A stretch of DNA of 64,000 nt. It comes from Nitrospinaceae bacterium (GTDB lineage Bacteria; Nitrospinota; Nitrospinia; Nitrospinales; Nitrospinaceae). Location of the stretch: contig OZ250172.1 in assembly GCA_965237905.1 (NCBI GenBank), positions 2,461,805-2,525,804 of the forward strand, in the 5' to 3' direction. Every line of letters starts with the position of its first letter. The first letter of the stretch is position 1. Below the pieces are notes generated by a model. That model worked only from the letters and a program-made list of their open reading frames with translations. It did no database searches and was not told the DNA's origin. Below, piece by piece: positions 1,594 to 59,489 of the stretch. The position numbers and the translations under genes were made by a program.

Positions 1594-2157
1594 TTAGCCG
1601 ATGACTCCCGTACAGGTTTTGGACAGAACCGCGTGTCCGGAAATCTGCTGTTCCAGAGAACCCAGCATGTCCTTCGTGGAGGTATTCTGATCCTTCACGA
1701 TCGTGCTGAAGTTTTCCTGAGCTACGCTTCCGAAATCCCCGTAGGAATCCTGGGAACACCCGTACATGCTGGCCAGGTTGTCCAGGTTTTCACCTTGACC
1801 GGCGGCCATTTCCTTGACCAGGCTGTTGTAGTTGACACTGGCGAAGGTTTCGCGCTCCTGTTGCTTGCGGGTCAGTTTGTCCTTGCCGCAATTGGAGGTA
1901 CCGAAAGTGATTGCGGTAGAGTGGCTGGATCCGAAGGGATCCACCATTGCCGCCAAAAGCTGGGCACCATCTCTTTTTGTTCCAAAAATCAAAGATCCGG
2001 GACCACAGCCGGCATCGCCATAACCTGCCGGGTGGGCGATAGCCGTGCTGGAAAAAGCGACTAAAACGAAAAGAACCGCACTTCCAAGTAGATATTTTTT
2101 CATTGAGTATCTCCTCGTGATGTTCAATGTTGTTTTTATTTTATAGTGGTAATTCAT
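1594..2157 (-). CDS. Secreted small protein, 4 conserved Cys, DUF3015-like, paralog 1 (probable start MKKYLL at 2103)
   Basis: Signal peptide. Motifs AGYGDAGCGPGS, NCG, MYGCSQDS and GHAVLSKTCTGVIG are shared with the two neighbours. The family name is from memory. Confidence 0.8.
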   Translation of the reverse strand: MNYHYKIKTTLNITRRYSMKKYLLGSAVLFVLVAFSSTAIAHPAGYGDAGCGPGSLIFGTKRDGAQLLAAMVDPFGSSHSTAITFGTSNCGKDKLTRKQQERETFASVNYNSLVKEMAAGQGENLDNLASMYGCSQDSYGDFGSVAQENFSTIVKDQNTSTKDMLGSLEQQISGHAVLSKTCTGVIG

Positions 2158-2199
2158 AAAGGTAATAATGTTCAGAGTTCATGGAATGATTTCATTCCA

Positions 2200-2721
2200 C
2201 TAGCCGATCACACCGGTACATGATTTGGACAGAACCGCATGGCCCGCCATTTCGTTCTCGATAGAAATCAGCATCTGATCGGAAGTGGTGCTTTCGTTTT
2301 GAACGATGTGTTCGAAGTTTTCCTGAACCATGGAGCTGAATTCACCATAAGATTCCTGCGAACATCCATACATGCCGGCCAGAGTACTCAGGCTCTCACC
2401 TTCGCCTACAGCCATTTCCCGGACCAGACTGGAATAATTAGTTTGAGCGAACATCTCCCGCTCTTTTTCCAATTTAACCAGGCCTTGCGGATTACAATTG
2501 AGAGAACCGACCGTGATAGCAGTCAATTGGGTATACTTGAATGTAGAATTAGTCGTAACTCCGAGCAATTGCATGGCACCCGGTGAGGTACCCGCCACCA
2601 GGGAACCCAGTCCACAACCGGATCCACCATAGCCTGCGGCAAACGCGGCACTCGAAAAGGTAATGAAACTAACAAGAACAACACCCACCATTAGAAGTTT
2701 TTTCATTGACTGTCTCCTCAT
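2200..2721 (-). CDS. Secreted small protein, DUF3015-like, paralog 2 (probable start MKKLLM at 2706)
   Basis: About 55-60% identical to paralogs 1 and 3, with the same Cys pattern. The RBS gaggaga lies upstream. Confidence 0.8.
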   Translation of the reverse strand: MRRQSMKKLLMVGVVLVSFITFSSAAFAAGYGGSGCGLGSLVAGTSPGAMQLLGVTTNSTFKYTQLTAITVGSLNCNPQGLVKLEKEREMFAQTNYSSLVREMAVGEGESLSTLAGMYGCSQESYGEFSSMVQENFEHIVQNESTTSDQMLISIENEMAGHAVLSKSCTGVIG

Positions 2722-3039
2722 GTTGTTAAGGGTTAAGGGTGAGTTAATATTCCGGATAACCGAAGTTTCCGGAAAAGAATTGAATCGAGCGATTAATTAG
2801 GAAATCATAAAACTCCTTATCTTATAAGATATTAAAGGATATTTTAAAATTACACAACCCATAAATGTAACTCTTTATCAACCTAAATGTAACATTCGGA
2901 TAAATAGTCTGGAACTGGCCTACGGACCCAAAAAAAGGGATGACCTTACAAATAAAAGGATTGAAGCATCTGCCCGGAGTTGGCGATATTTGAAATCAGA
3001 GAGGAATTACCTTTTTAAGGTAGGTTGGCTGATATATGG

Positions 3040-3100
3040 GAGGGGAAATAGAAAAGGATATCAATGGTTCGCAAAAACACATTGATATCCTTTTATTTTA
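3040..3100. terminator. Bidirectional-looking terminator: stem GGATATCAATG / CATTGATATCC (3056-3066 / 3080-3090), T-runs on both sides
   Basis: The stem is identical to the terminator at 1536-1570 but the loop differs. It follows the stop of paralog 3 at 3120. Confidence 0.65.
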
Positions 3101-3119
3101 TACAACCCAGTCCTGTCGA

Positions 3120-3668
3120 TTAACCGGCGATACTGGAACAGGATTTGGACAATACTGCGTGGCCTGACATCTCGGATTTCAGGCTGGAAAGCATTTGCTG
3201 AGAGGTGGTGGAGTCGCTTTTGACGATATCACTGAAATTCGCCTGAACCAGAGAACCGAAATCAGCTTGGGAGCCCTGAGAACAACCGTAGAGACCTGCT
3301 AAAGTGTCCAGATTTTCCCCTTCGCCCATAGCCATTTCTTTCACGAGAGTGGAATAATTGTTCTTGGCGAATTCCTCCCGCTCCTTCTCCAGCTTCACCA
3401 GGCCTACGGGGTTACAATTGGAAGTCCCGGTAGTAATACCAAAGGTCTGGGTACCAAATAACCCGTTTGTGGTGGAGGCCAGAATCTGGAAACCTTGTCC
3501 TTGATCTTTTCCGAAAGCCAGGGACCCGAGACCGCAACCGGCATCGCCATACCCGGCGGCAAAGGCCGATCCGGAAAAAGAAACTAAAGAAAGAACCAGA
3601 GCACCTGTCATTATTAGCTTTTTCATTGGAGTTCTCCTTCTGTGGTTAACTAAAGGGGTGGTTAACAA
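3120..3668 (-). CDS. Secreted small protein, DUF3015-like, paralog 3 (probable start MKKLIM at 3626, RBS aaggaga)
   Basis: Same architecture and motifs as paralogs 1 and 2. Confidence 0.8.
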   Translation of the reverse strand: MLTTPLVNHRRRTPMKKLIMTGALVLSLVSFSGSAFAAGYGDAGCGLGSLAFGKDQGQGFQILASTTNGLFGTQTFGITTGTSNCNPVGLVKLEKEREEFAKNNYSTLVKEMAMGEGENLDTLAGLYGCSQGSQADFGSLVQANFSDIVKSDSTTSQQMLSSLKSEMSGHAVLSKSCSSIAG

Positions 3669-3876: not shown

Positions 3877-3951
3877 TGGAGGCGCCGGGCGGATTCGAAC
3901 CGCCGATAGAGGTTTTGCAGACCTCGGCCTTAGCCACTTGGCGACGGCGCC
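3877..3951 (-). tRNA. tRNA-Cys (anticodon GCA)
   Basis: The reverse complement reads GGCGCCGTCGCCAAGTGGCTAAGGCCGAGGTCTGCAAAACCTCTATCGGCGGTTCGAATCCGCCCGGCGCCTCCA: 7-bp acceptor stem, anticodon loop CTGCAAA, T-loop GGTTCGAATCC, encoded CCA. Confidence 0.9.
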
Positions 3952-3985
3952 CTTTGAGTTTTGACAGGTGGGGGAAAGAAGAAAA

Positions 3986-4060
<75 letters not shown>

Positions 4061-6627: not shown

Positions 6628-7407
6628 ATGAAAAAATCCCTGATTTTTTTAAAATCAATAGTATTGAGCCTGCCGCTGGTGATGGTTTGGGCCGATTTTG
6701 CCTGGGCCGCCAAGGAAAAAACGGTTGCCGGCTGGACCATCATCTCCGTCATCGACAAAGGCGGACCCATGATGTACCCCATCCTGTTCAGTTCCATCCT
6801 CATGATAGGCATCGCCATCGAACGCTTCTACACCCTGCGCAGAAAAAACATCATCAACCCCGATTTTCTGGAGAAGGTGCGGTCGCATTGGAACTGGAAG
6901 GATATCCATCTTGGCCTCCAGCTGTGTAAATCCTACGACAACTCTCTGTCGCGCATTTTGAAAGCGGGATTGTTGCGCTTCGGCGGCAAGGTGGACGAAG
7001 TCGAACGCGCCATCGAAGGTGCGGGCCAGCACGAGGCGTCGCTCCTCACCTCCAATTTGCGGGTGCTGGGCGCGGTGGCGAACATCACCCCCATGCTCGG
7101 CCTGCTCGGCACCGTGTTCGGCATGATCAAGGCGTTCAACGTCATCTCGCAAAGCGGGACCGGCAACCCCGGCCTCGTCGCCAGCGGCATCTCCGAAGCA
7201 TTGATCACCACCGCCGCGGGCCTCGTCGTCGGCATCCCCGCACTGGCGCTGTATCATTATTTCCGGGGACGCATCGAGCGGTTCGTGTTCGAGATGGAGG
7301 AAGTGTCCGTGCAGTTGGTGGAAGAGTTGAACTTCGAAAGCATGCGCAACCGCCGCGCCGAAAAGGGCAAAGACGCCGCCGCCAAAACCACCGCCCGCCC
7401 AGCGTGA
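6628..7407 (+). CDS. exbB: MotA/TolQ/ExbB proton-channel family protein (start MKKSLIF at 6628; the listed ORF begins upstream at 6445)
   Basis: Three TM helices plus the conserved ExbB/TolQ C-terminal region (GLLGTVFGMIKAF). The stop codon lies inside the palindrome CCAGCGTGACGCTGG. Confidence 0.8.
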   Translation: MKKSLIFLKSIVLSLPLVMVWADFAWAAKEKTVAGWTIISVIDKGGPMMYPILFSSILMIGIAIERFYTLRRKNIINPDFLEKVRSHWNWKDIHLGLQLCKSYDNSLSRILKAGLLRFGGKVDEVERAIEGAGQHEASLLTSNLRVLGAVANITPMLGLLGTVFGMIKAFNVISQSGTGNPGLVASGISEALITTAAGLVVGIPALALYHYFRGRIERFVFEMEEVSVQLVEELNFESMRNRRAEKGKDAAAKTTARPA

Positions 7408-7424
7408 CGCTGGACTCAATTTTG

Positions 7425-7500
7425 CAGGGGCGTTATGGCGGGATTGATTCGTTACTTTCGCCAGCCGAGGTTTTAAAATTACCTGCGGCGGTTCGCCGCT
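7425..7500 (+). repeat. Copy A of the ~90-bp intergenic repeat family (core ACGGTTTTAAAATTACCTGCGG, terminal hairpin GCGGCG-GTT-CGCCGC)
   Basis: It aligns with the copies at 47436, 50075 and 58180. Confidence 0.75.
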
Positions 7501-7528
7501 TCATCTGTGGTTAATTGGATTGTAGGGT

Positions 7529-7924
7529 ATGCATTTCAGACGCGAACAGGAAGAAAACTATTCACTGGAACTGACGCCCCTGATCGACGTCGTGTTCCTG
7601 CTCCTCATCTTCTTCATGGTATCGACCGCCTTCGTCGACTTTCCACGGCGGATGGATATCACACTGCCCACCTCGAAAGCCGCCAGCGACGACGAAGTGG
7701 TCAAGAACCTCGAGATCGAGATGACCAAAGACAAAAAGATTTATGTCAAGGGACGCCGCATCAGCCTGCAACAGCTCGAGGCCAGTCTCGCCATTCTCAA
7801 GAAACCGCAGGAAGTCAAAACCATCATCCGCGCCGACCAGGACATCGCCTACGGCGACGTCGTCAAAGTCATGGGCCTCCTCCAGGCCGCCAAAGTCACC
7901 GACATCTCCGTCGCCGTCAAATAA
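7529..7924 (+). CDS. exbD: Biopolymer transport protein ExbD/TolR
   Basis: 131 aa with a single N-terminal TM (LTPLIDVVFLLLIFFM) and the ExbD fold signature. Confidence 0.85.
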   Translation: MHFRREQEENYSLELTPLIDVVFLLLIFFMVSTAFVDFPRRMDITLPTSKAASDDEVVKNLEIEMTKDKKIYVKGRRISLQQLEASLAILKKPQEVKTIIRADQDIAYGDVVKVMGLLQAAKVTDISVAVK

Positions 7925-8054: not shown

Positions 8055-8801
8055 GTGAATACAGGAAGACTCAAACGTTGGATCCAAATCGACTGGGACG
8101 CGATTGCCGGAATCATCGCGGCCCTCATCGCCATCGTGATGCACTACCTGCACTCCCTGGAAGTGGACGTGCTCCTCATGATCGCCCTGGTCCTGCTGGC
8201 GCTTTTGTTTATCCGTGACCTTAGAAGTGAAAGCCGGATGGAAAAGGCCGGTGAAACTCTGCAACGTATCGAAAACTGCGCCCGCGAAATCCAGAGGACC
8301 CTCCATCCCGCGGATGCCCTGCTGATAGGTCCGGCCAATTTGCGTTCGGAAACGGAGCAGTTTGTGCGGCGGGCCAGGGGCGAAATGGTTTGGTTTCATG
8401 TCTGCCCGCTGATGTTCAAAACGCAATTGTTATTCGATGCCCTGCTCAAACCCGCGATCGAAAACCGACAGGTCACCGCTCTCCGGTTTACCTTGGACGT
8501 GGGTCAAAAAGCGGTTTGGGATGCGGAAGTGATGCCCAAAATTCAGAAGTGTGCTGGTGCCCACAAGGTCCAGGCTCCCGCTTGGGTATCCATTGCCGAT
8601 CACGTTTCCTTTATTCTCTCCGACACCGATAAAGAAAAGGAAAAAGAATGCCTGTTGAGTTTTTGGGGCGAGCCGTTCATGTCTGAAAATATCGGGCAAT
8701 CGGTTCCACGTTACATCTTTCATGTTCAGCCGCATTCCGAACTGGTGATGCGATTCGTTGAAATAGAACGGTGTTCCCGCCTGGGAAATACCCAAACCTA
8801 A
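8055..8801 (+). CDS. Hypothetical membrane protein (GTG start)
   Basis: Two N-terminal TM helices, no recognisable domain. It sits where TonB might be expected but is not Pro-rich. Confidence 0.5.
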   Translation: MNTGRLKRWIQIDWDAIAGIIAALIAIVMHYLHSLEVDVLLMIALVLLALLFIRDLRSESRMEKAGETLQRIENCAREIQRTLHPADALLIGPANLRSETEQFVRRARGEMVWFHVCPLMFKTQLLFDALLKPAIENRQVTALRFTLDVGQKAVWDAEVMPKIQKCAGAHKVQAPAWVSIADHVSFILSDTDKEKEKECLLSFWGEPFMSENIGQSVPRYIFHVQPHSELVMRFVEIERCSRLGNTQT

Positions 8802-8880
8802 AGGTCGGGGTGCAGGATCTCCAAGCCGCCCAAGTCACCGACATCTCTGTTGCGGTGAAGTAAAACCTGCTCGAACCTTG

Positions 8881-9159: not shown

Positions 9160-9424
9160 GCGTTGTCCTTCCGGCGAAGCGCCGGTGCTAATTTTTCCCC
9201 TCCTTGCCAAGGAGGGGATACAGGGGAGGTTATGATAACTCCACCCCTCACCTTAATCCATCACCCTGTGGGTGCTTCCCATGAGGGGAGAGGAGATTTT
9301 TGATTTTGCTCCCCCTTGTCGAAGGGTGGCAGGGTGTCGCGCTTTCCTTCGGCAAGCTCAGGACAGGCTAATCGGCTCAGCATGACACCCTATTATGCTT
9401 TCTCAATGGAAATCCGGGATAAAT

Positions 9425-9778: not shown

Positions 9779-10060
9779 AGTCTCCCCTCCTTGTTGAGGA
9801 GGGGCTGGGGGTGGTGCATAAATTCTTACTTTAACCCATTTATTTTATCAATGTCACCGCAGAGGACAAGAAAATTGTGCCGTTCTGGAGGGAACGCGAA
9901 GCGGGCGAAGGGTCCTGATCTGTCAAGTGCGTGTAAAATAAGAGGTCTTCGGCACCCTGCCGGTACATATTTTACGGGGAAGCGGACCATTTCGCGTTGA
10001 GACGCCACAATTCGGTAGGGAATTTCCATTACCCGGGATATCATGCGGTCTTTATTTTGA

Positions 10061-10190
10061 ACCACCGATGAAGCGGCGAGCCGCCGCTGGCAATTTGGGT
10101 CCAGCGTCACGCTGATCCCCCTCCTTACGAAGGAGGGGTTAGGGGTGGTTGATATCAACCCCTCCCCTTGAAAAGGGGAGGAGTATTTAG
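10061..10190. repeat. Cluster of palindromic repeats: GCGGCGAGCCGCCGC hairpin, GGGTCCAGCGTCACGCTG, CCCCTCCTTACGAAGGAGGGG, GGGGTGGTTGATATCAACCCC, CCCCTTGAAAAGGGGAGG
   Basis: Units of the same families recur at 7399, 9197, 9785, 12505, 23925, 28586, 30345, 41055, 48530, 50061, 50258 and 58168. Confidence 0.8.
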
Positions 10191-10233
10191 TTTTTATCCG
10201 TGTCCATCTGTGTTCATCTGTGGTTAATTTGAT

Positions 10234-11562
10234 TTGTATATGAAGAGAAATACGAAAACTTACCGGAAATACGCCGAGTCGTTGCTGGAGCTCATCGACG
10301 CCAGTCCCACGCCGTTTCACGCGACAAGCGAACTGGCCGCTCTCCTGAAAGCTGAAGGCTTTGCCGAGTTGCAGGAGGCGGACGCCTGGAGTCTGAAAAA
10401 GGGCGGGCGCTATTATGTGACGCGCAACGATTCGTCCCTGGTGGCGTTTGTGATGGGATCGAAGCCGGCGGAGTCGGCCGGATTCAAAATGATCGGCGCG
10501 CACACCGACAGCCCCAATCTGCGCCTCAAACCCAACCCGGCTTACGAAAAATCCGGCTATGTGCAGTTGGGTGTCGAAGTGTACGGCGGTGTGTTGTTGA
10601 CAACGTGGACCGATCGCGACCTGTCCCTCGCCGGGCGGGTGGTTTTGAAATCGAAGCCGGGCCAGCCGGTGTCGCGTCTCCTTAAAATTAACCGACCGTT
10701 GCTTCGCATTCCCCAGTTGGCCATTCATTTCAACCGCGAAGTCAACGACAAGGGACTCAAACTCAACAAGCAGACCCATCTGCCGCCGATTCTACAAATG
10801 GCGGAACAGGATCTTTCTTCCGAGAAAGTGTTGCAGGAGCTGGTGGCGCGCGAGTTGCCATGCCAGGCGGAGGAGATCGTCAGCCTCGATCTGGCATTGT
10901 ACGACGTGCAGGCCTCGACCTTTGCCGGTCCGAATGATGAGTTTGTGTTCGCCCCGCGCCTCGATAACCTGGCGTCCTGCCACGCGGCGACGGTGGCGTT
11001 ACTGGAGGCATCGAAGCAGGATGACGCCACCCGCGTGCTGGCGTTTTACGATCATGAAGAAGTCGGGAGCGAAACCGCGCAGGGCGGCGAGTCGCCGTTT
11101 TTGAAAGATGCATTGGAGCGGATGGTGATGGACTCCGGCAATCCGCGCGAGGCTCTCATGCGGGCGATTGCCCAATCGATTTTCATTTCCGCCGACATGG
11201 CGCACGCCGTGCACCCCAACTATGCCGATAAGCACGAGGATCGGCACCTGCCGCTCATCAACGCGGGGCCGGTGATCAAAACCAACGCCGGGCAGAGGTA
11301 TGCCACCGAGGGCGTATCGAGCGCGCATTTCGAATTGATGAGCCAGCGCGCCGGGGTGAACGTGCAGAAGTTCGTGGTACGGTCCGACATGGGATGCGGG
11401 ACCACGATCGGCCCTCTCACCGCCGCCAACCTCGGCATCCGCACCGTCGACGTGGGCAATCCCATGCTCTCCATGCACTCGATCCGCGAGATGGCCGGGT
11501 CGCAGGACCACGGCGACATGATTCAGGTCTTCAAGGAATATTTTAATGCGGAGAAGGCTTAG
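10234..11562 (+). CDS. M18 family aminopeptidase (aspartyl aminopeptidase-like); probable ATG at 10240
   Basis: GAHTDSPNLRLKP and the downstream metal-binding blocks are typical of peptidase M18. Confidence 0.85.
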   Translation: MYMKRNTKTYRKYAESLLELIDASPTPFHATSELAALLKAEGFAELQEADAWSLKKGGRYYVTRNDSSLVAFVMGSKPAESAGFKMIGAHTDSPNLRLKPNPAYEKSGYVQLGVEVYGGVLLTTWTDRDLSLAGRVVLKSKPGQPVSRLLKINRPLLRIPQLAIHFNREVNDKGLKLNKQTHLPPILQMAEQDLSSEKVLQELVARELPCQAEEIVSLDLALYDVQASTFAGPNDEFVFAPRLDNLASCHAATVALLEASKQDDATRVLAFYDHEEVGSETAQGGESPFLKDALERMVMDSGNPREALMRAIAQSIFISADMAHAVHPNYADKHEDRHLPLINAGPVIKTNAGQRYATEGVSSAHFELMSQRAGVNVQKFVVRSDMGCGTTIGPLTAANLGIRTVDVGNPMLSMHSIREMAGSQDHGDMIQVFKEYFNAEKA

Positions 11563-12488: not shown

Positions 12489-12608
12489 TCACCCTTGGCA
12501 AGCCTCCTGCCCGGAGGGGGAAGGTTAAATCGGTGTCATACTGAGCTTGTCGAAGTATGGCACCGTGTCGCCCTTCGACAGGCTCAGGGCGACACGGTTA
12601 CGCCTTTG

Positions 12609-13394
12609 CTAATTTTCCTCCGGGCGTGGCCCGGCCCAGTAGCGGCCGTTGTTTTTATGGAGCGTCAAGGGATGCCCCAGCGCCTGCGACAGGATTTTAT
12701 CTTGAAGCATGGAGTCCTTGTTTCCCTGACGGAAGATTGTTCCGTCTTTGAGGTAGAGGACGTGGGTGATGGCGGGGAGGATTTCTTCGATATGATGCGT
12801 GACGTAAATCATCTGGGTTTTTCGGGAGAGCTTCTGCAGGGTTTCGAGGAAGCGCTCGCGCGTGGGGATATCAAGTCCGGCGCAGGGTTCGTCGAGGACC
12901 AGCAGGGTGGGGCGGTGGACCAGCGCCCGCGCCAGCAGAACCCGCCGGGCTTCACCGTAGGACATACTGCGGAACCGTTTTTGGCCCAGGTTCTCGATTT
13001 CCAGAAGATGCATACACTCTTCGGCCCGCTGTTTCTGCCGGGCGTTGACTTTCTGCCAGAGCCCGATACTGGCGAAGAAGCCCGATTCCACCACTTCCAG
13101 ACCGGTTACATTCCGGTCGTAGTTTTCCTGGTATTCGGCGGAGACGTAACCGACCTGATCGCGGATGTCTGCCAGTCCGTTCCAGGTTCGGCTGTTGAAC
13201 CAGTGTACCGTACCACCGTCGACGGGCAGTAGTTCGCCGAAGATGAGTTTCAACAGAGTGGTTTTGCCGGAACCGTTGTTGCCGACCAGCGCCCAGTGTT
13301 CGCCGGGGTGGACGGTCCAGTCGATAGACTTCAGGACGGGCGTGTCTTTCAAATAAACAGTGGCATTTTTGATCTGAACCAGAAAAGCGCTCAT
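12609..13394 (-). CDS. ABC transporter ATP-binding protein (orphan ATPase)
   Basis: Walker A GNNGSGKTTLLK, signature LSYGEARR, Walker B LLVLDEP. Confidence 0.85.
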   Translation of the reverse strand: MSAFLVQIKNATVYLKDTPVLKSIDWTVHPGEHWALVGNNGSGKTTLLKLIFGELLPVDGGTVHWFNSRTWNGLADIRDQVGYVSAEYQENYDRNVTGLEVVESGFFASIGLWQKVNARQKQRAEECMHLLEIENLGQKRFRSMSYGEARRVLLARALVHRPTLLVLDEPCAGLDIPTRERFLETLQKLSRKTQMIYVTHHIEEILPAITHVLYLKDGTIFRQGNKDSMLQDKILSQALGHPLTLHKNNGRYWAGPRPEEN

Positions 13395-23918: not shown

Positions 23919-24040
23919 ACGTTCCCCTCCTTTTTAAGGAGGGGCCGGGGGTGGTTTTCCTTCATCTGTTTCCTTATTTGCCCCAAGTTTTGCACCCGCC
24001 GATCTGCTACAATACGACTCGTTTTCGATCATAATATAAA

Positions 24041-28597: not shown

Positions 28598-28648
28598 TCT
28601 CCTTGGTAATGGGAGGGAAATTTAGCTCCGGCGCTACGCCGGTCCAGC
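28586..28648 (+). repeat. Composite three-hairpin element (CCTCTCC..GGGAGGG; CCGGCG-cta-CGCCGG; GTCCAGCGTCACGCTGG), left copy
   Basis: The same arrangement in the same orientation occurs at 30345-30409 on the other side of gltX. Confidence 0.75.
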
Positions 28649-28845
28649 GTCACGCTGGTCGGTGGCTCACTGTTCTTCCGGTTTGGGTGGGTCTCTTCTT
28701 TCTTCGGCTTTCGGTTTTTTCTGGTCGCCAATAACGGTTTTGAGCGGACAGGCCTTGAATATCGGACACTTTTCACAGCCGACGGCCAAAGCAACAGGAC
28801 ACAGGGTCATGGGTCTCACCTCCTCTTCTTGATAGGGGTAGGGGC

Positions 28846-30344: not shown

Positions 30345-30409
30345 CCCCCTTCCTGAAGGGGGAGCATATTACCTCCGGGCGTTGCCCGGTTGGGTCCAGC
30401 GTCACGCTG
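30345..30409 (+). repeat. Composite three-hairpin element (CCCCCTTCC..GAAGGGGGAG; CCGGGC-gtt-GCCCGG; GGGTCCAGCGTCACGCTGG), right copy
   Basis: Direct repeat of 28586-28648. Confidence 0.75.
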
Positions 30410-30686
30410 GCAGTCGCCTAGATTAGCAGAATCGAGGGATGAAATTAAGCGCGAAATCTTTTCCGTCCCATAGGGCTAAAGTTCCTTTGTTATCGATAGC
30501 TTGGGTAGAACCCGAGCGATTCCGCCGCGACCCGAGTTACTCTTTTAAAGTGAATGCCGGGGGGCTTGAAATTGGGTTACGCCCGATTTTGAAAATTTTT
30601 ATCTTTGAAAAATAAGGCCTTTCCTTCACAATGTTTAAATATCCGACAATTCAATCTTTTTCATCCGCCTCATGTAAGGATAAGCC

Positions 30687-41049: not shown

Positions 41050-41187
41050 GCCTCAGTTTACCACGCCAGCGTAACGCTGGACCTAAAATTTCATCTACTC
41101 CCCAATGCCCGAAATGACCTTTGCATGTTATAATTAAAAATAATCCCATAATACGAATAACTAACAACTTATAAGGAACTTAGAATT

Positions 41188-47023: not shown

Positions 47024-47446
47024 ATGGGTTATAAAAATCCGATTCCGGCGGTCGATCTCATTATTGAAATTGAGGGTAAAGGTCTGGTGCTGATTGAGCG
47101 GCTCAACCCGCCTCCGGGTTGGGCGTTGCCGGGCGGATTCGTGGAGGTTGGCGAATCCCTGGAGCAGGCGGCTGTCCGCGAAGCCAAAGAGGAGACCTGT
47201 CTGGATGTGGAACTGCTGGGGCAGTTTCATACCTATTCCGACCCCAATCGGGACCCCCGCATGCATTGCATTTCAACCGTTTTTGTAGCCAGGGCGACAG
47301 GAACGCCGAAGGCGGAGGATGATGCCAAATCCGTCGCCCTGTATCCCAAAGACCAGCTTCCGGATATCCTGGCATTTGACCACCGGAAAATTCTGGAGGA
47401 CTATCTGAACTCCCCCTGGCTCCTGCCCGGAGGGGGAAAGGGCTGA
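47024..47446 (+). CDS. NUDIX hydrolase
   Basis: Nudix box [24 protein letters not shown]. The last 8 codons and the stop lie inside the repeat ...CCTGCCCGGAGGGGGAAAGGGCTGACCGG. Confidence 0.85.
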
Positions 47447-47520
47447 CCGGAAACGGCCAGAGAGAATCCTTGGAGCGCAATTTACGGTTTTAAAATTACC
47501 CGTGGCGGTTCGCTACCCAG
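47436..47520 (+). repeat. Copy B of the ~90-bp repeat family (GGCTGACCGGAAACGGC ... ACGGTTTTAAAATTACCCGTGGCGGTTCGCTAC)
   Basis: It aligns with copies A, C and D. Its terminal hairpin GTGGCG/CGCTAC has one mismatch. Confidence 0.75.
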
Positions 47521-47543
47521 GCAAGGTCCGGAGCTAATTCTTT

Positions 47544-48476
47544 ATGTTATCCCACTTGTTCTCAAAAATTTTTTGGTTGCCGGTCCTCGTGATGTTTCTG
47601 GTATTTACGGTTCTGCCGGGAACGGCGGTTTCCGGAGACCTGAAGGGATACCAGCAAACACTCTGGCGTCATCTGGAAGCGGTTGTTGCCATCGGGCCTC
47701 GCCCGCCGGGAAGCCCGGCCCTCGAAAAACTTCGCGGTTACATCCGGTCGATGGGCAAACGATACGCGGACGAAATTCGCGAGCAGAAATTCACATTCCA
47801 GAAACCGGGTGGACCCACCGTGGGCATGGTTAATATCGAGTTGGTGTTTCACGGAAAATCAAAGAAGGCACCCCTTCTCCTCGGAGCGCATTACGATACC
47901 CGTCCGTTTGCGGATAAAGAGCCGGACCCCTTTGCCCAACAGCTTCCCATTCTGGGAGCCAACGATGGCGGGTCGGGCACGGCGGTGCTGTTGGCCCTCG
48001 CGCAATACCTGCATGCACACAAACCGGAGCGGCCGGTGCGCCTCGTATTTTTTGACGGTGAAGATTACGGGGTGGAAGGTTCTTCCGATTATTTTCTGGG
48101 GTCCAAGCATTACGCCGCCCAACTCGAAAAGGCCGATCGGAGGGAATGGCCGTACTGCGTGTTGATCATCGATATGGTGGGCGACAAGGAATTGCAAATT
48201 GCGCGCGAGACCTATTCCGCCGAGAACGCTTCGTGGTTGCTACAAATGATTACCGAGTCCGCCCAAAGGCTGAAGGTTACCCCGTTTCTCAATCAACCTA
48301 AGCACACGGTGCGCGACGACCATCTGCCGTTTATCAAAATCGGCGTGCCTGCCGCAGTGCTGATGGATTTCGATTATCCCTACTGGCACACCCTGCAAGA
48401 CACACTCGACAAGTGTTCGCCGGAAAGCCTGTTCGCTGTGTTTTCTGTGGTGGTGGATGCGATGGGAAAGATTTAG
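47544..48476 (+). CDS. M28-family peptidase (aminopeptidase/glutaminyl-cyclase-like), secreted
   Basis: GAHYDTRP, ANDGGSGTAVLLALA, and FDGEDYG metal ligand blocks. Confidence 0.75.
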   Translation: MLSHLFSKIFWLPVLVMFLVFTVLPGTAVSGDLKGYQQTLWRHLEAVVAIGPRPPGSPALEKLRGYIRSMGKRYADEIREQKFTFQKPGGPTVGMVNIELVFHGKSKKAPLLLGAHYDTRPFADKEPDPFAQQLPILGANDGGSGTAVLLALAQYLHAHKPERPVRLVFFDGEDYGVEGSSDYFLGSKHYAAQLEKADRREWPYCVLIIDMVGDKELQIARETYSAENASWLLQMITESAQRLKVTPFLNQPKHTVRDDHLPFIKIGVPAAVLMDFDYPYWHTLQDTLDKCSPESLFAVFSVVVDAMGKI

Positions 48477-48613
48477 CTTTACGGAGGACAAGAAAACATA
48501 GACAGGATAAAATCTGATTAGTTATTCCTCCCCCTTGTAAAGGGGGCTGGGGGGATTCTTCCTTTTGCTTTGGTAGTTGCCTCATTTATGAGGCGGTTTT
48601 AAAAATGAATGGT

Positions 48614-50060: not shown

Positions 50061-50160
50061 CCTCCTCCCCGGAGGGGGAATTGGCTGACCGGTAACGGCA
50101 ACCGTGAATTACTGAGCGCAACTCACGGTTTTAAAATTACCTGCGGAGGTACTCCGCCGT
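50061..50160 (+). repeat. Copy C of the ~90-bp repeat family, preceded by the palindrome CCTCCTCCCCGGAGGGGGAA (GGCTGACCGGTAACGGCAACCGTGAATTACTGAGCGCAACTCACGGTTTTAAAATTACCTGCGGAGGTACTCCGCC)
   Basis: Internal hairpins AACCGTGA/TCACGGTT and GCGGAG/CTCCGC. Confidence 0.8.
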
Positions 50161-50312
50161 CAACCAGGGGTTTTCACAAAAAACCCTCTTCCAAATAGGA
50201 AGCACCCGCAGGGTGACGGGCTGGGTGAGGGGTGGTGTCATCTTAATCTTCCCTGTATCCCCTCCTCGATAAGGAGGGGACCAGGGAGTATCCTCTGGGT
50301 GAGGATAAAAGC

Positions 50313-58167: not shown

Positions 58168-58275
58168 CCGCCCTCTAGCGAGGGAGGCAAATGGCTGACG
58201 GTTAACGGCAAGCGTTGACTATAGGGTGCAGTTCAAGGGTTTTAAAGTTACCAGCGGAGGCACTCCGCTTTTTTC
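58168..58275 (+). repeat. Copy D of the ~90-bp repeat family, preceded by the palindrome CCCTCTAGCGAGGGAGG; its terminal hairpin AGCGGAG-gca-CTCCGCT plus T6 forms a plus-strand terminator
   Basis: GGCTGACGGTTAACGGCAAGCG ... GGGTTTTAAAGTTACCAGCGGAGGCACTCCGCTTTTTT. Confidence 0.8.
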
Positions 58276-58293: not shown

Positions 58294-58824
58294 GTGGCCA
58301 GTACCGAATATTTGATCAAACAGTTTCTCAGTCCGGACAAACGCAGTCTGGACCTCAGCAATTATAATCTGGGGGACAAGGGCGCGCGGGAGGTTACCGA
58401 GTCGCCGCAATTGAAGCGCGGTAAACTGCGGTCGTTGCGTTTGCCCAATAACAGCATCAGTGATGAAGGGGCGAAGGATATCGCCAACTGCGAGTATTTC
58501 AAGAACCTGACCGAACTCGATCTGTACGGCAACGTGATCAGCGACGACGGGGTGAAGGCGATTGCGACCTCTCCTCATTTTGCCAGGTTGAAAAAGCTGG
58601 GGCTGTACGGAAATCTCATCGAGGACGAAGGGGCGATCGCCATTGCCGAATCCGAGGTGTTGAACAAGGTCACCCACCTGTACATCAGCGCCAATCGCGT
58701 GCGGCGCGAGGGCATTGAAGCGTTGAAAAAGGCGAAATGCCGGACCCGCCTGTGCCACCTGTTTGTCGACGACCTCGATGAGTTCGAATATGAGGATGTT
58801 GAAGATGAGGATGATGAGGATTAA
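58294..58824 (+). CDS. Ribonuclease-inhibitor-type leucine-rich repeat protein, cytoplasmic, acidic C-terminal tail (GTG start)
   Basis: About 28-residue repeats of the form LxxLxLxxNxIxDxGAxxIA, with a DEDDED tail. Confidence 0.7.
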   Translation: MASTEYLIKQFLSPDKRSLDLSNYNLGDKGAREVTESPQLKRGKLRSLRLPNNSISDEGAKDIANCEYFKNLTELDLYGNVISDDGVKAIATSPHFARLKKLGLYGNLIEDEGAIAIAESEVLNKVTHLYISANRVRREGIEALKKAKCRTRLCHLFVDDLDEFEYEDVEDEDDED

Positions 58825-58827
58825 CCG

Positions 58828-59415
58828 TTGACCCACCGCTTGAGAACGACACTTCTCAACTTGATAATAGCCGCCCTGATCCTGGTATTTCCGTGGACGG
58901 GAGCCCAGGCCCAGTTCTTCGAACAGAAAGACGTTTTCGACCAGTCGGAGTTGGATTACAAAAAGATTTTCAAGGAAGGGTTGTCGGCGAACGGCAAAAT
59001 CTTGAACCTTTCCGGGAAAAAAATCGGGGACAAGGGGGTTGAAATTCTGCTCACCCAGGATTTCCTTAAGAAAGTGACCAAGCTGGACTTGCGCTACAAC
59101 AAAATTTCGGAAAAAGGGGCCAAGTTGATGGCTCAATCCAAAGCCTTCGGCAAACTTCAGGTACTGGAGTTGAAACACAATTATCTTTTGGACAACGGTA
59201 CGGTGGCGTTGGCGGAATCCAAAGGATTCTCCAAGCTTGAAAAATTGAGTCTGGGATGGAATGAGATTCGGGATGCCGGGGCGCTGGCGTTTGCCAAAAC
59301 CAAAACCTTTCCCAAATTAAAAAAGCTGGACCTGCGCGGCAACTTTCTCGCCGACGAGACCAAAAAGACCCTCAAAAAGGATTTGGCCCACCTGAAATCG
59401 CTAAAACTGTTTTAG
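58828..59415 (+). CDS. Ribonuclease-inhibitor-type LRR protein with signal peptide (secreted)
   Basis: Signal peptide followed by five or more RI-like LRR units. There is a 4-bp gap after the upstream paralog. Confidence 0.7.
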   Translation: MTHRLRTTLLNLIIAALILVFPWTGAQAQFFEQKDVFDQSELDYKKIFKEGLSANGKILNLSGKKIGDKGVEILLTQDFLKKVTKLDLRYNKISEKGAKLMAQSKAFGKLQVLELKHNYLLDNGTVALAESKGFSKLEKLSLGWNEIRDAGALAFAKTKTFPKLKKLDLRGNFLADETKKTLKKDLAHLKSLKLF

Positions 59416-59489
59416 GCAGGATTGAAAAGTTGATCTGTCACCCTGAGCCTGTCGAAGGGTGACGATTAAGGTCAGGCTTCGACACCACG

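Follow-up and report, generated by a model that had tools for sequence, protein, structure and literature searches.

Can short palindromic repeats that overlap the ends of genes alter the proteins that those genes encode? The question is raised by a stretch of 64,000 nucleotides (nt) from a Nitrospinaceae genome (GenBank assembly GCA_965237905.1, contig OZ250172.1, positions 2,461,805 to 2,525,804 of the forward strand), here called the window and numbered from its first letter. A first-pass annotation had proposed that repeats remodelled the C-terminal tails of two of its genes, exbB and a NUDIX hydrolase gene. Comparison with orthologous loci (labelled L001, L002 and so on) indicates that repeats replaced the last residues of at least two proteins, the NUDIX hydrolase and an ATPase of an ATP-binding cassette (ABC) transporter. 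The genome is probably a carrier of lineage-specific mosaic repeats, similar to repetitive extragenic palindromes (REPs) and bacterial interspersed mosaic elements (BIMEs), that reshape gene ends and are polymorphic between strains of this marine group. All named homologues of the NUDIX, ExbB and ABC proteins come from metagenome-assembled genomes (MAGs) of Nitrospinota or Nitrospinaceae.

The basic unit of these repeats, the H-module, is a GC-rich perfect palindrome of 15 nt (stem 6 bp, loop 3 nt) that carries an A-N3-AATTT tail on its 3′ side. Such modules, together with two alternative bodies of about 45-60 nt, make up composite elements of about 100 nt. The A-type composite has an H-module, a body of about 45 nt and an inverted H-module, termed the T module. 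The B-type composite has a CTCC..GGAGGGG hairpin, a body with GGCTGACCGKTRAC...GAGCGCAATTCAC and, again, an inverted H-module.

The junction between the NUDIX hydrolase gene (47024-47446, plus strand; PF00293 in homologues) and the M28 peptidase gene (47544-48476, plus strand) offers an unusually clear view of tail replacement by a small non-coding element, since the empty site, the filled site and a relic of the old tail are all visible. In the window, the NUDIX gene ends CTC CTG CCC GGA GGG GGA AAG GGC TGA (47420-47446). These eight codons (LLPGGGKG) and the stop lie wholly within a 97-nt B-type element (47420-47516, plus strand), which adjoins the conserved Trp codon and consists of a CTCC..GGAGGGGG hairpin, the body GGCTGACCGG...GAGCGCAATTTAC and a T module. 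The first-pass annotation had already placed them within a repeat, and in this it was right. It had also named their source as the palindrome CCTGCCCGGAGGGGG plus the head of a 90-bp repeat, but the unit is really 96-97 nt long and present in three copies, and CCTGCCCGGAGGGGG is merely an imperfect palindrome. In L001 the site is empty at TGG|CCGGGCAAGGCCCGGAGCTAA and reads ...AGC TGG | CCG GGC AAG GCC CGG AGC TAA, followed by TTTTT and the M28 peptidase start codon, ATG. The sequence in the window is ...CCC TGG | 97-nt B-type | CCA GGC AAG GTC CGG AGC TAA, followed by TTCTTT and ATG. Because the flanks are the same and the old tail is retained, this pair shows a 97-nt insertion directly after the Trp codon. 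The displaced former tail and stop, CCAGGCAAGGTCCGGAGCTAA (PGKVRS and stop; 47517-47537, plus strand), is itself a decayed H-module, and its counterpart CCGGGCAAGGCCCGG AGCTAATTT also occurs elsewhere as a non-coding repeat.

The tails were also compared among the 120 closest NUDIX homologues, which are at least 84% identical. All 120 share ...DYLNSxW, after which the tails diverge into three classes. LLPGG-type tails (LLPGGGKG and variants such as LLSGGGTG and LLPGADTL) are confined to the window's protein and some 15 more, each with an identity of at least 91% to the query. Tails of PGKARS, SGKARS or PDKARS belong to proteins of 138 amino acids, while CQKC, CQPR, NQPR and similar tails, the majority class, belong to proteins of 136 amino acids. 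Taken with the L001 site, the comparison indicates that a PGKARS-type tail was replaced by LLPGGGKG, presumably in that order, CQKC-type tails also being present in orthologues. The case for a remodelled NUDIX tail is thus stronger than first proposed.

The junction itself varies, with six different layouts among relatives. Where repeats are absent, the M28 gene either overlaps the NUDIX gene (ATGTTAA, with the tail CQKC, in L002) or begins 3 nt behind it (tail CKSQ, in L047). L049 keeps CQKC and has a 170-nt repeat array behind the stop, and L031 and L048 carry the same B-type insertion as the window. On the tree of the NUDIX core the tail classes are interleaved (one LLPGGGKG protein, for example, has the same core as a CKSQ protein), so that the junction is a polymorphic hot spot. 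For the same reason, and because a neighbour-joining tree of the 130-residue core was poorly resolved, reconstruction of the ancestral tail from that tree was rejected. The window's element is closest to the copy that L001 has at a neighbouring locus 2.6 kb off, which suggests a local copy event. At L004 3400-3480 (ERZ21271483 scaffold_627), a deletion has taken out the 3′ half of the B-type element, the former tail of the NUDIX gene and the M28 gene's 5′ end, and the N-terminus of the peptidase (MTFKYMRVSLSAIQM...) is now partly read from element remnants.

The ABC transporter ATPase gene (12609-13394, minus strand; PF00005), a third case beyond the two first proposed, tells a similar story. 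The other loci compared contain no orthologue of it, and its relatives were taken from a metagenome scan for this gene. It ends TGG G|CCGGGCCACGCCCGG|AGGAAAATTAG, which translates as W-AGPRPEEN and stop; the last eight residues and the TAG are encoded by a truncated A-type 5′ end, CCGGGCCACGCCCGG AGGAAAATTAGC AAAGGCGTAACCG (12595-12634, minus strand). Distant orthologues, as well as L055-L058 and L064, end W-L[KR]GS and have no such module. The closer relatives have several different endings. AGPRPEEN or AGPRPEEI, like that of the window, is found in L052, L053 and L066, and AGPRPAG in L059-L062, where the TAA comes from a second hairpin, CCGGCTAAGAGCCGG. L054 ends VAG, with the TAA within the hairpin CCGGCTAAGAGCCGG, and L063 ends AANRRG, the translation of an inverted T module, GCGGCGAACCGCCGC GGGTAATT. 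Module-encoded tails are present in 23 of the 33 closest protein clusters, and four such tails were read straight from DNA. The ancestral LKGS or LRGS has been replaced at least four times independently, by AGPRPEEN, AGPRPAG, [AV]AG and AANRRG.

At exbB (6628-7407, plus strand; PF01618 in homologues) the answer is negative. The gene ends ...GCC CGC CCA GCG TGA, and its TGA (7405-7407) is, as had been noticed, the centre of a palindrome: it makes up the loop, 3 nt long, of CCAGCGTGACGCTGG (CCAGCG-TGA-CGCTGG; 7399-7413, plus strand), a perfect palindrome of the 6-3-6 form. With its tail ACTCAATTTTGC (7414-7425), this H-module forms the 5′ end of a 101-nt A-type element (7399-7499, plus strand) that lies between exbB and exbD (7529-7924, plus strand) and has orthologous copies in L012 and L051. 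The T module of the element (7469-7499, plus strand) comprises GGTTTTAAAATTACC, one base and the hairpin GCGGCG-GTT-CGCCGC; on the opposite strand the hairpin comes first and AGGTAATTTTAAAACC after it, so that the T module amounts to an inverted H-module. Close ExbB homologues end ...ARPA or ...ARPV. The closest relative, L050, whose ExbB is 97% identical, reads CCA GCG TAG followed by unrelated sequence, with neither the palindrome nor an A-type element. L044 ends CCT GTT TAA (ARPV) without a GC palindrome, and the repeat-free loci L045 and L046 end RPG and RPVGSS, respectively. Since relatives without the palindrome or without repeats end in RPA, RPV, RPG or RPVGSS, the CCAGCG arm is pre-existing coding sequence. 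The proposal that a repeat remodelled the ExbB tail is refuted by these orthologues: the ending ...ARPA is ancestral, only the stop codon and the right arm belong to the repeat, and the protein is unchanged. The effect of the repeat is limited to the spacing between exbB and exbD, which is now 121 nt, as against 12 nt in L045 and 2 nt in L046, both distant relatives.

Exchange of modules can also be followed at this site. In L051 and L012, an A-type element lies directly 3′ of the exbB stop, with CCGGGCAACGCCCGG as its first hairpin (H1) instead. H1 is not the same in the window, L051 and L012, yet all three have the body and the T module in common. The window hairpin sits 9 nt further upstream than that of L051, its left arm and loop being CCAGCG-TGA, and this layout, exactly 9 nt shorter, fits an exchange of modules by homology at the coding end CCAGCGT. 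In L043, exbB ends CCA GCG TAA, two hairpins follow and exbD is lost. At L043 3283-3400 (GCA_022561835.1), a minus-strand leucine-rich-repeat gene adjoins the repeat cluster directly after exbB. The loss of exbD and the new neighbour therefore point to rearrangement or deletion at the repeats.

Two side observations concern exbD. A 45-nt copy (8819-8863, 84% identical) of the 3′ end of exbD (7880-7924), TAA included, lies just 3′ of an unannotated open reading frame (ORF) of 248 amino acids (8055-8801). This ORF has no Pfam match, and it is present in L044 and missing from L045 and L046. The arrangement suggests that a gene was inserted after exbD and that the exbD end was duplicated in the process. 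In addition, a repeat made of a CCTCCCC-type hairpin followed by TATTTAGTTTTTATCCGTGTCCATCTGTGTTCATCTGTGGTTAAT, with iterated CATCTGTG, is found at 7502-7528 and 10161-10262 in the window and also in L044, L050, L051 and L064. It lies directly 5′ of the start codons of exbD and of an M18 aminopeptidase gene (10234-11562), and could be a common regulatory or leader sequence.

The modules are far too frequent to be chance palindromes of the window. Allowing up to two mismatches, the CCAGCG palindrome has five sites (7399, 10101, 28644, 30396 and 41066), the number first reported, which correspond to 10 strand-matches; the expectation from 100 shuffles is 0.11, and a count of 10 was attained in none of them. 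GC-rich perfect 6-3-6 palindromes of any sequence number 15, whereas shuffles average 3.2 and do not exceed 7. The window and the fetched relative loci, 294 kb of Nitrospinaceae DNA in all, contain 123 such palindromes, and a few subfamilies of hairpin and tail dominate: CCAGCGTGACGCTGG with the tail ACCCAATTT, CCGGGCAAGGCCCGG with AGCTAATTT, CCGGGCAACGCCCGG with AGGAAATTT, and GCGGAGTACCTCCGC or GCGGCGAACCGCCGC with AGGTAATTTTAAAACC. Bare T modules occur as well, as does a third 5′ partner (GTCATYCTGAGC...). When 185,579 species genomes were scanned with the T-module query GGTTTTAAANTTACCNGNGGNGG, 37 loci were returned, of which 31 are in eight Nitrospinaceae-type MAGs. The remaining six have no right arm of the hairpin and for that reason look like chance matches. 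The modules are confined to Nitrospinaceae and polymorphic between strains. They are short palindromic units in many copies, mainly outside genes, in keeping with the general definition of a REP, whose units are 20-40 bp long.

The window has four long copies. Besides the A-type element after exbB and the B-type element at the NUDIX gene, a second B-type copy of 96 nt (50062-50157, plus strand) is antisense to both flanking minus-strand genes, and a third of 97 nt (58172-58268, plus strand) is, alone among the copies, terminator-like because a T6 run comes after it. All four share a 3′ piece, GGTTTTAAAATTACC followed by a hairpin, whose opposite strand reads as an H-module. This last stretch of about 31 nt is all that the copy after exbB has in common with the B-type copies, its 5′ hairpin and body being different. 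At the orthologous sites of the 50062 copy, L001 has a B-type element like that of the window, while L028 and L032 have an A-type element. Smaller forms are scattered between them. Two hairpins without a body, TCAGCGTGACGCTGG ACCCAAATTGCCA GCGGCGGCTCGCCGC, lie at 10073-10115 (minus strand), a layout also seen in L043; a pair of H-modules that abut, CCAGCGTGACGCTGG and CCGGCGTAGCGCCGG, with AGCTAAATTT after them, lies at 28628-28658 (minus strand); and two more, CCAGCGTGACGCTGG ACCCAA CCGGGCAACGCCCGG AGGTAATAT, lie in a divergent intergenic region at 30375-30410 (minus strand). Single H-modules are CCAGCG-TAA-CGCTGG followed by ACCTAAAATTT (41066-41080, plus strand) and CCGGCG-AAG-CGCCGG followed by TGCTAATTTTT and then by a CCCCTCC-type hairpin (9171-9185, plus strand).

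Two other repeat families accompany the modules. Palindromes of the class CCCCTCC-loop-GGAGGGG and its variants, which partner the GC hairpin modules in most repeat clusters, are located at 9197-9217, 9784-9804, 10118-10138, 10161-10181, 23924-23944, 30345-30362, 48530-48546 and 50259-50279. A longer imperfect hairpin, GTCAYYCTGAGC...CGAAGG(G)TGAC, often joined to a T module, occurs at 12572-12593 (minus strand), 59437-59458 (plus strand) and 9346-9361 (minus strand) in the window and in the relatives L007, L013, L025, L034, L042 and L063.

The structure of the elements was examined by a covariation test on 13 A-type copies. In hairpin H1, pairing reaches 85.9% and three pairs have changed on both sides; in hairpin H2 it is 100%, and two pairs covary. 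At 0.286, the covariation score exceeds the 0.127 of shuffled alignments, none of 500 of which equalled it, and pairing is 84% in the real structure as against 30-45% when the partner is slid by 1-3 columns. The terminal hairpins are maintained by compensatory changes. The bodies show no convincing helix or covariation in RNAalifold alignments, in which only the two terminal hairpins stand out; an inner GGCG/CGCC helix has 82.7% pairing and covaries little.

Several known kinds of element were considered and rejected. A structured small RNA or riboswitch was rejected because single copies fold at shuffle level and only the terminal hairpins are conserved. A known RNA family was rejected because Rfam 15, searched at gathering score over the whole window, returned two tRNAs only; with E values up to 10, the best sub-threshold match of two element copies has E = 0.11. 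A mobile sigma-70 promoter, with TAAAAT in GGTTTTAAAATTACC as the −10 box, was rejected because the four long copies have no promoter-like site on the plus strand and the 50062 copy is antisense to both neighbours. A canonical terminator, which calls for a sense GC-rich stem-loop with a U run directly behind it, fits in part: orientation near gene ends is sense, 13 against 1, but the T6 run is found at the 58172-58268 copy alone, and the other copies have T runs of 3-4 nt, separated from the stem by 5-6 nt.

Among the alternatives to mobile repeats, the one that fares best holds that the elements are functional RNA signals placed by selection, such as terminators, 3′-end stabilisers or an attenuator between exbB and exbD, and that their overlap with coding ends is a by-product. 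It is supported by their position relative to genes. Of 68 modules whose orientation is defined by the tail, 13 are in the sense orientation and one is antisense within 40 nt of, or overlapping, the stop codon of an ORF of at least 150 codons. Six of these 13 begin at the first base 3′ of the stop; because L022 and L030 are orthologous, the six represent five independent genes. The compensatory changes that keep the hairpins paired fit this proposal too, as do the hairpin and T-containing tail of each module, which a consensus scan calls terminator-like, and an A-type element is kept at the exbB-exbD junction in three lineages. However, the T runs are short and removed from the stem, numerous copies run antisense to the genes on both sides or sit between divergent genes (50062, 30375 and 41066, for example), and away from gene ends modules occur in both orientations, divergent intergenic regions included. 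Presence and absence differ among near-identical strains, there is no Rfam match and the bodies lack covariation. An origin by selection for RNA signals is therefore unlikely, though a signalling role and the reading as mobile repeats are compatible and do not exclude one another.

A second alternative attributes the patterns mainly to exchange, by homologous recombination or gene conversion, among the repeats already resident and between co-occurring strains, rather than to transposition of discrete units. In its favour are the A-type and B-type elements at an identical site in different genomes, the swap of H1 at exbB with a constant body and T module and a layout 9 nt shorter than that of L051, and the interleaved NUDIX tail classes on the core tree. 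Against it, the empty NUDIX site of L001 has no T module or B body with which recombination could occur, so that the 97 nt would have arrived there as one unit. Units of 96-97 nt with identical ends are present at unrelated loci, and the similarity of the window's NUDIX copy to the L001 copy 2.6 kb away points to a copy event. As a replacement for transposition, recombination is very improbable.

Hardly tenable either is the idea that the coding ends are ancestral, that their likeness to repeats arose by chance or convergence and that no protein was remodelled: it holds for exbB, with ...RP[AVG] in L050, L044, L045 and L046, but is already refuted for the NUDIX and ABC ATPase genes, two of the three, by the empty and filled NUDIX pair with its relic tail, by tails that translate exactly from modules that elsewhere are non-coding repeats and by the restriction of module-encoded tails to the closest relatives, distant orthologues having other tails, and overall it deserves hardly any credence.

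The evidence therefore favours mobile mosaic repeats. The units are discrete, repeated and lineage-restricted; they are gained, lost and exchanged between close strains, and they prefer the 3′ ends of genes and tight junctions. A unit that lands a few codons before a stop is entered by translation, which then terminates at a stop borne by the element, and a short tail encoded by the repeat takes the place of the native one. Because hairpins are present at both ends and there are no inverted repeats and no duplication, spread may proceed by copy-and-paste of single-stranded hairpin DNA through a trans-acting, hairpin-recognising enzyme of the HUH/RAYT type (RAYT or IS200/IS605 kind). The different element types at the same site suggest that gene conversion between copies may contribute as well. 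In the RNA, by analogy with the REPs of E. coli, a sense hairpin beside a stop might act as a 3′ stabiliser or weak terminator, which would protect the upstream message, and might uncouple translation of the downstream gene. A bolder proposal is that the modules form an undescribed REP superfamily without a GTAG or CGTC tag, targeted to or selected at the first base after the stop in the sense orientation, where they would serve as portable hairpins coupled to termination that tune pairs such as exbB and exbD and keep C-terminal tails polymorphic in wild populations of marine nitrite oxidisers. This is conceivable, but the balance at present is clearly tilted against it.

Several observations weigh against the reading as mobile, REP-like repeats. 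The empty and filled NUDIX sites show neither a target-site duplication nor a terminal inverted repeat, the boundary being ambiguous by about 1 nt. The fold of whole elements is no better than that of shuffles, with z-scores from −1.39 to +1.40, so that one long hairpin is unsupported. A phmmer search with an E. coli RAYT query found no match among 2,400 ORFs of the window and about 300 kb of loci, which is a weak test. GTAG or CGTC tetranucleotide tags are absent from the module ends, where the 5′ flanks are variable and the conserved flank is the 3′ A-N3-AATTT. The comparison sequences are metagenome assemblies throughout, which repeats can mis-join, although the key junctions are seen in independent assemblies (L031 and L048; L052, L053 and L066; L012 and L051). 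As for the choice of target, the left flanks of about 20 modules and seven B-type copies end in GG, GC, AA or a stop codon and show no consistent motif.

A few other features of the window are recorded for completeness. The minus strand at 1594-3668 has three tandem paralogous genes (repeat families D1, D3 and D8; 64-78% identity), two of which have the same long hairpin, GGATATCAATG...CATTGATATCC, and a T run downstream, like a canonical terminator. Genes for tRNA-Cys and tRNA-Gly are located at 3877-4060. A single TAA is all that lies between two adjacent plus-strand ORFs, 58294-58824 and 58828-59415. Leucine-rich repeats (LRR_6) are present in the first, and the two may be one gene broken by a stop codon or two genes.

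These results have consequences for annotation, since C-terminal residues and stop codons of genes in Nitrospinaceae MAGs may be derived from repeats, and differences in protein length between strains at repeat sites reflect repeat polymorphism rather than sequencing error. The features of most interest are the empty, filled and relic states at the NUDIX site, the multiple repeat-encoded tails of the ABC ATPase and the sense placement directly after stop codons. If this placement is targeted or functional, it would provide a handle on REP-like effects on operon expression in marine nitrite oxidisers that are uncultured but of ecological importance. If it is neither, the locus is an ordinary case of a known phenomenon in a new lineage.

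In E. coli, REP hairpins stabilise mRNA within operons, as between malE and malF, and REPs close to stop codons stall terminating ribosomes. The exbB-exbD and NUDIX-M28 pairs resemble this arrangement in having a stable hairpin over or just after the upstream stop, and a comparable effect may be supposed by analogy. The likeness to the REPs and BIMEs of Enterobacteria and Pseudomonas (PMC3733652) is extensive: short GC-rich palindromes in many copies, mostly intergenic and 3′ of genes, which occur singly, as inverted pairs and in mosaic clusters with other short motifs, differ between strains at one locus, supply stop codons and can take up the final codons of ORFs. What defines the two REP superfamilies in the literature is a tetranucleotide, GTAG or CGTC, conserved on one side of the stem-loop (PMC3733652). 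The modules described here differ in having a perfect 6-3-6 palindrome and an A-N3-AATTT tail without either tag, and in their host family, Nitrospinaceae.

REP doublets are documented as mobile units, known as REPINs, which RAYT transposases mobilise (PMC3116915). In a REP/REPIN-RAYT system, the RAYT gene (a Y1/HUH transposase) is single-copy and flanked by its cognate REPs. The A-type element, with an H-module on the plus strand, a body of about 45 nt and an H-module on the minus strand, is likewise an inverted pair with a spacer and is present or absent as a unit at orthologous sites. It differs from a REPIN in that the long hairpin of the whole element is unsupported and the end modules come from different subfamilies; in the B-type element the ends have unrelated hairpins. 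Like the Rickettsia palindromic elements, intragenic REPs and MITEs (miniature inverted-repeat transposable elements) such as Correia and ERIC (PMC3733652, PMC10969869), the units are tolerated in coding sequence, where they add or replace a short peptide and can end the host ORF with their own stop codons. Unlike those elements, the modules of the window are found in the last few codons only and never in mid-gene, and the NUDIX insertion lacks the terminal inverted repeats and target-site duplication of a classical MITE. No paper linking Nitrospina to REP, REPIN, RAYT or MITE was found in the library searched. REPs near or overlapping coding ends, REP termini that serve as stop codons and intragenic REPs that add residues are documented in other bacteria (PMC3733652). 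Replacement of protein tails by repeats is a type of event known from other bacteria, here met in a new lineage.

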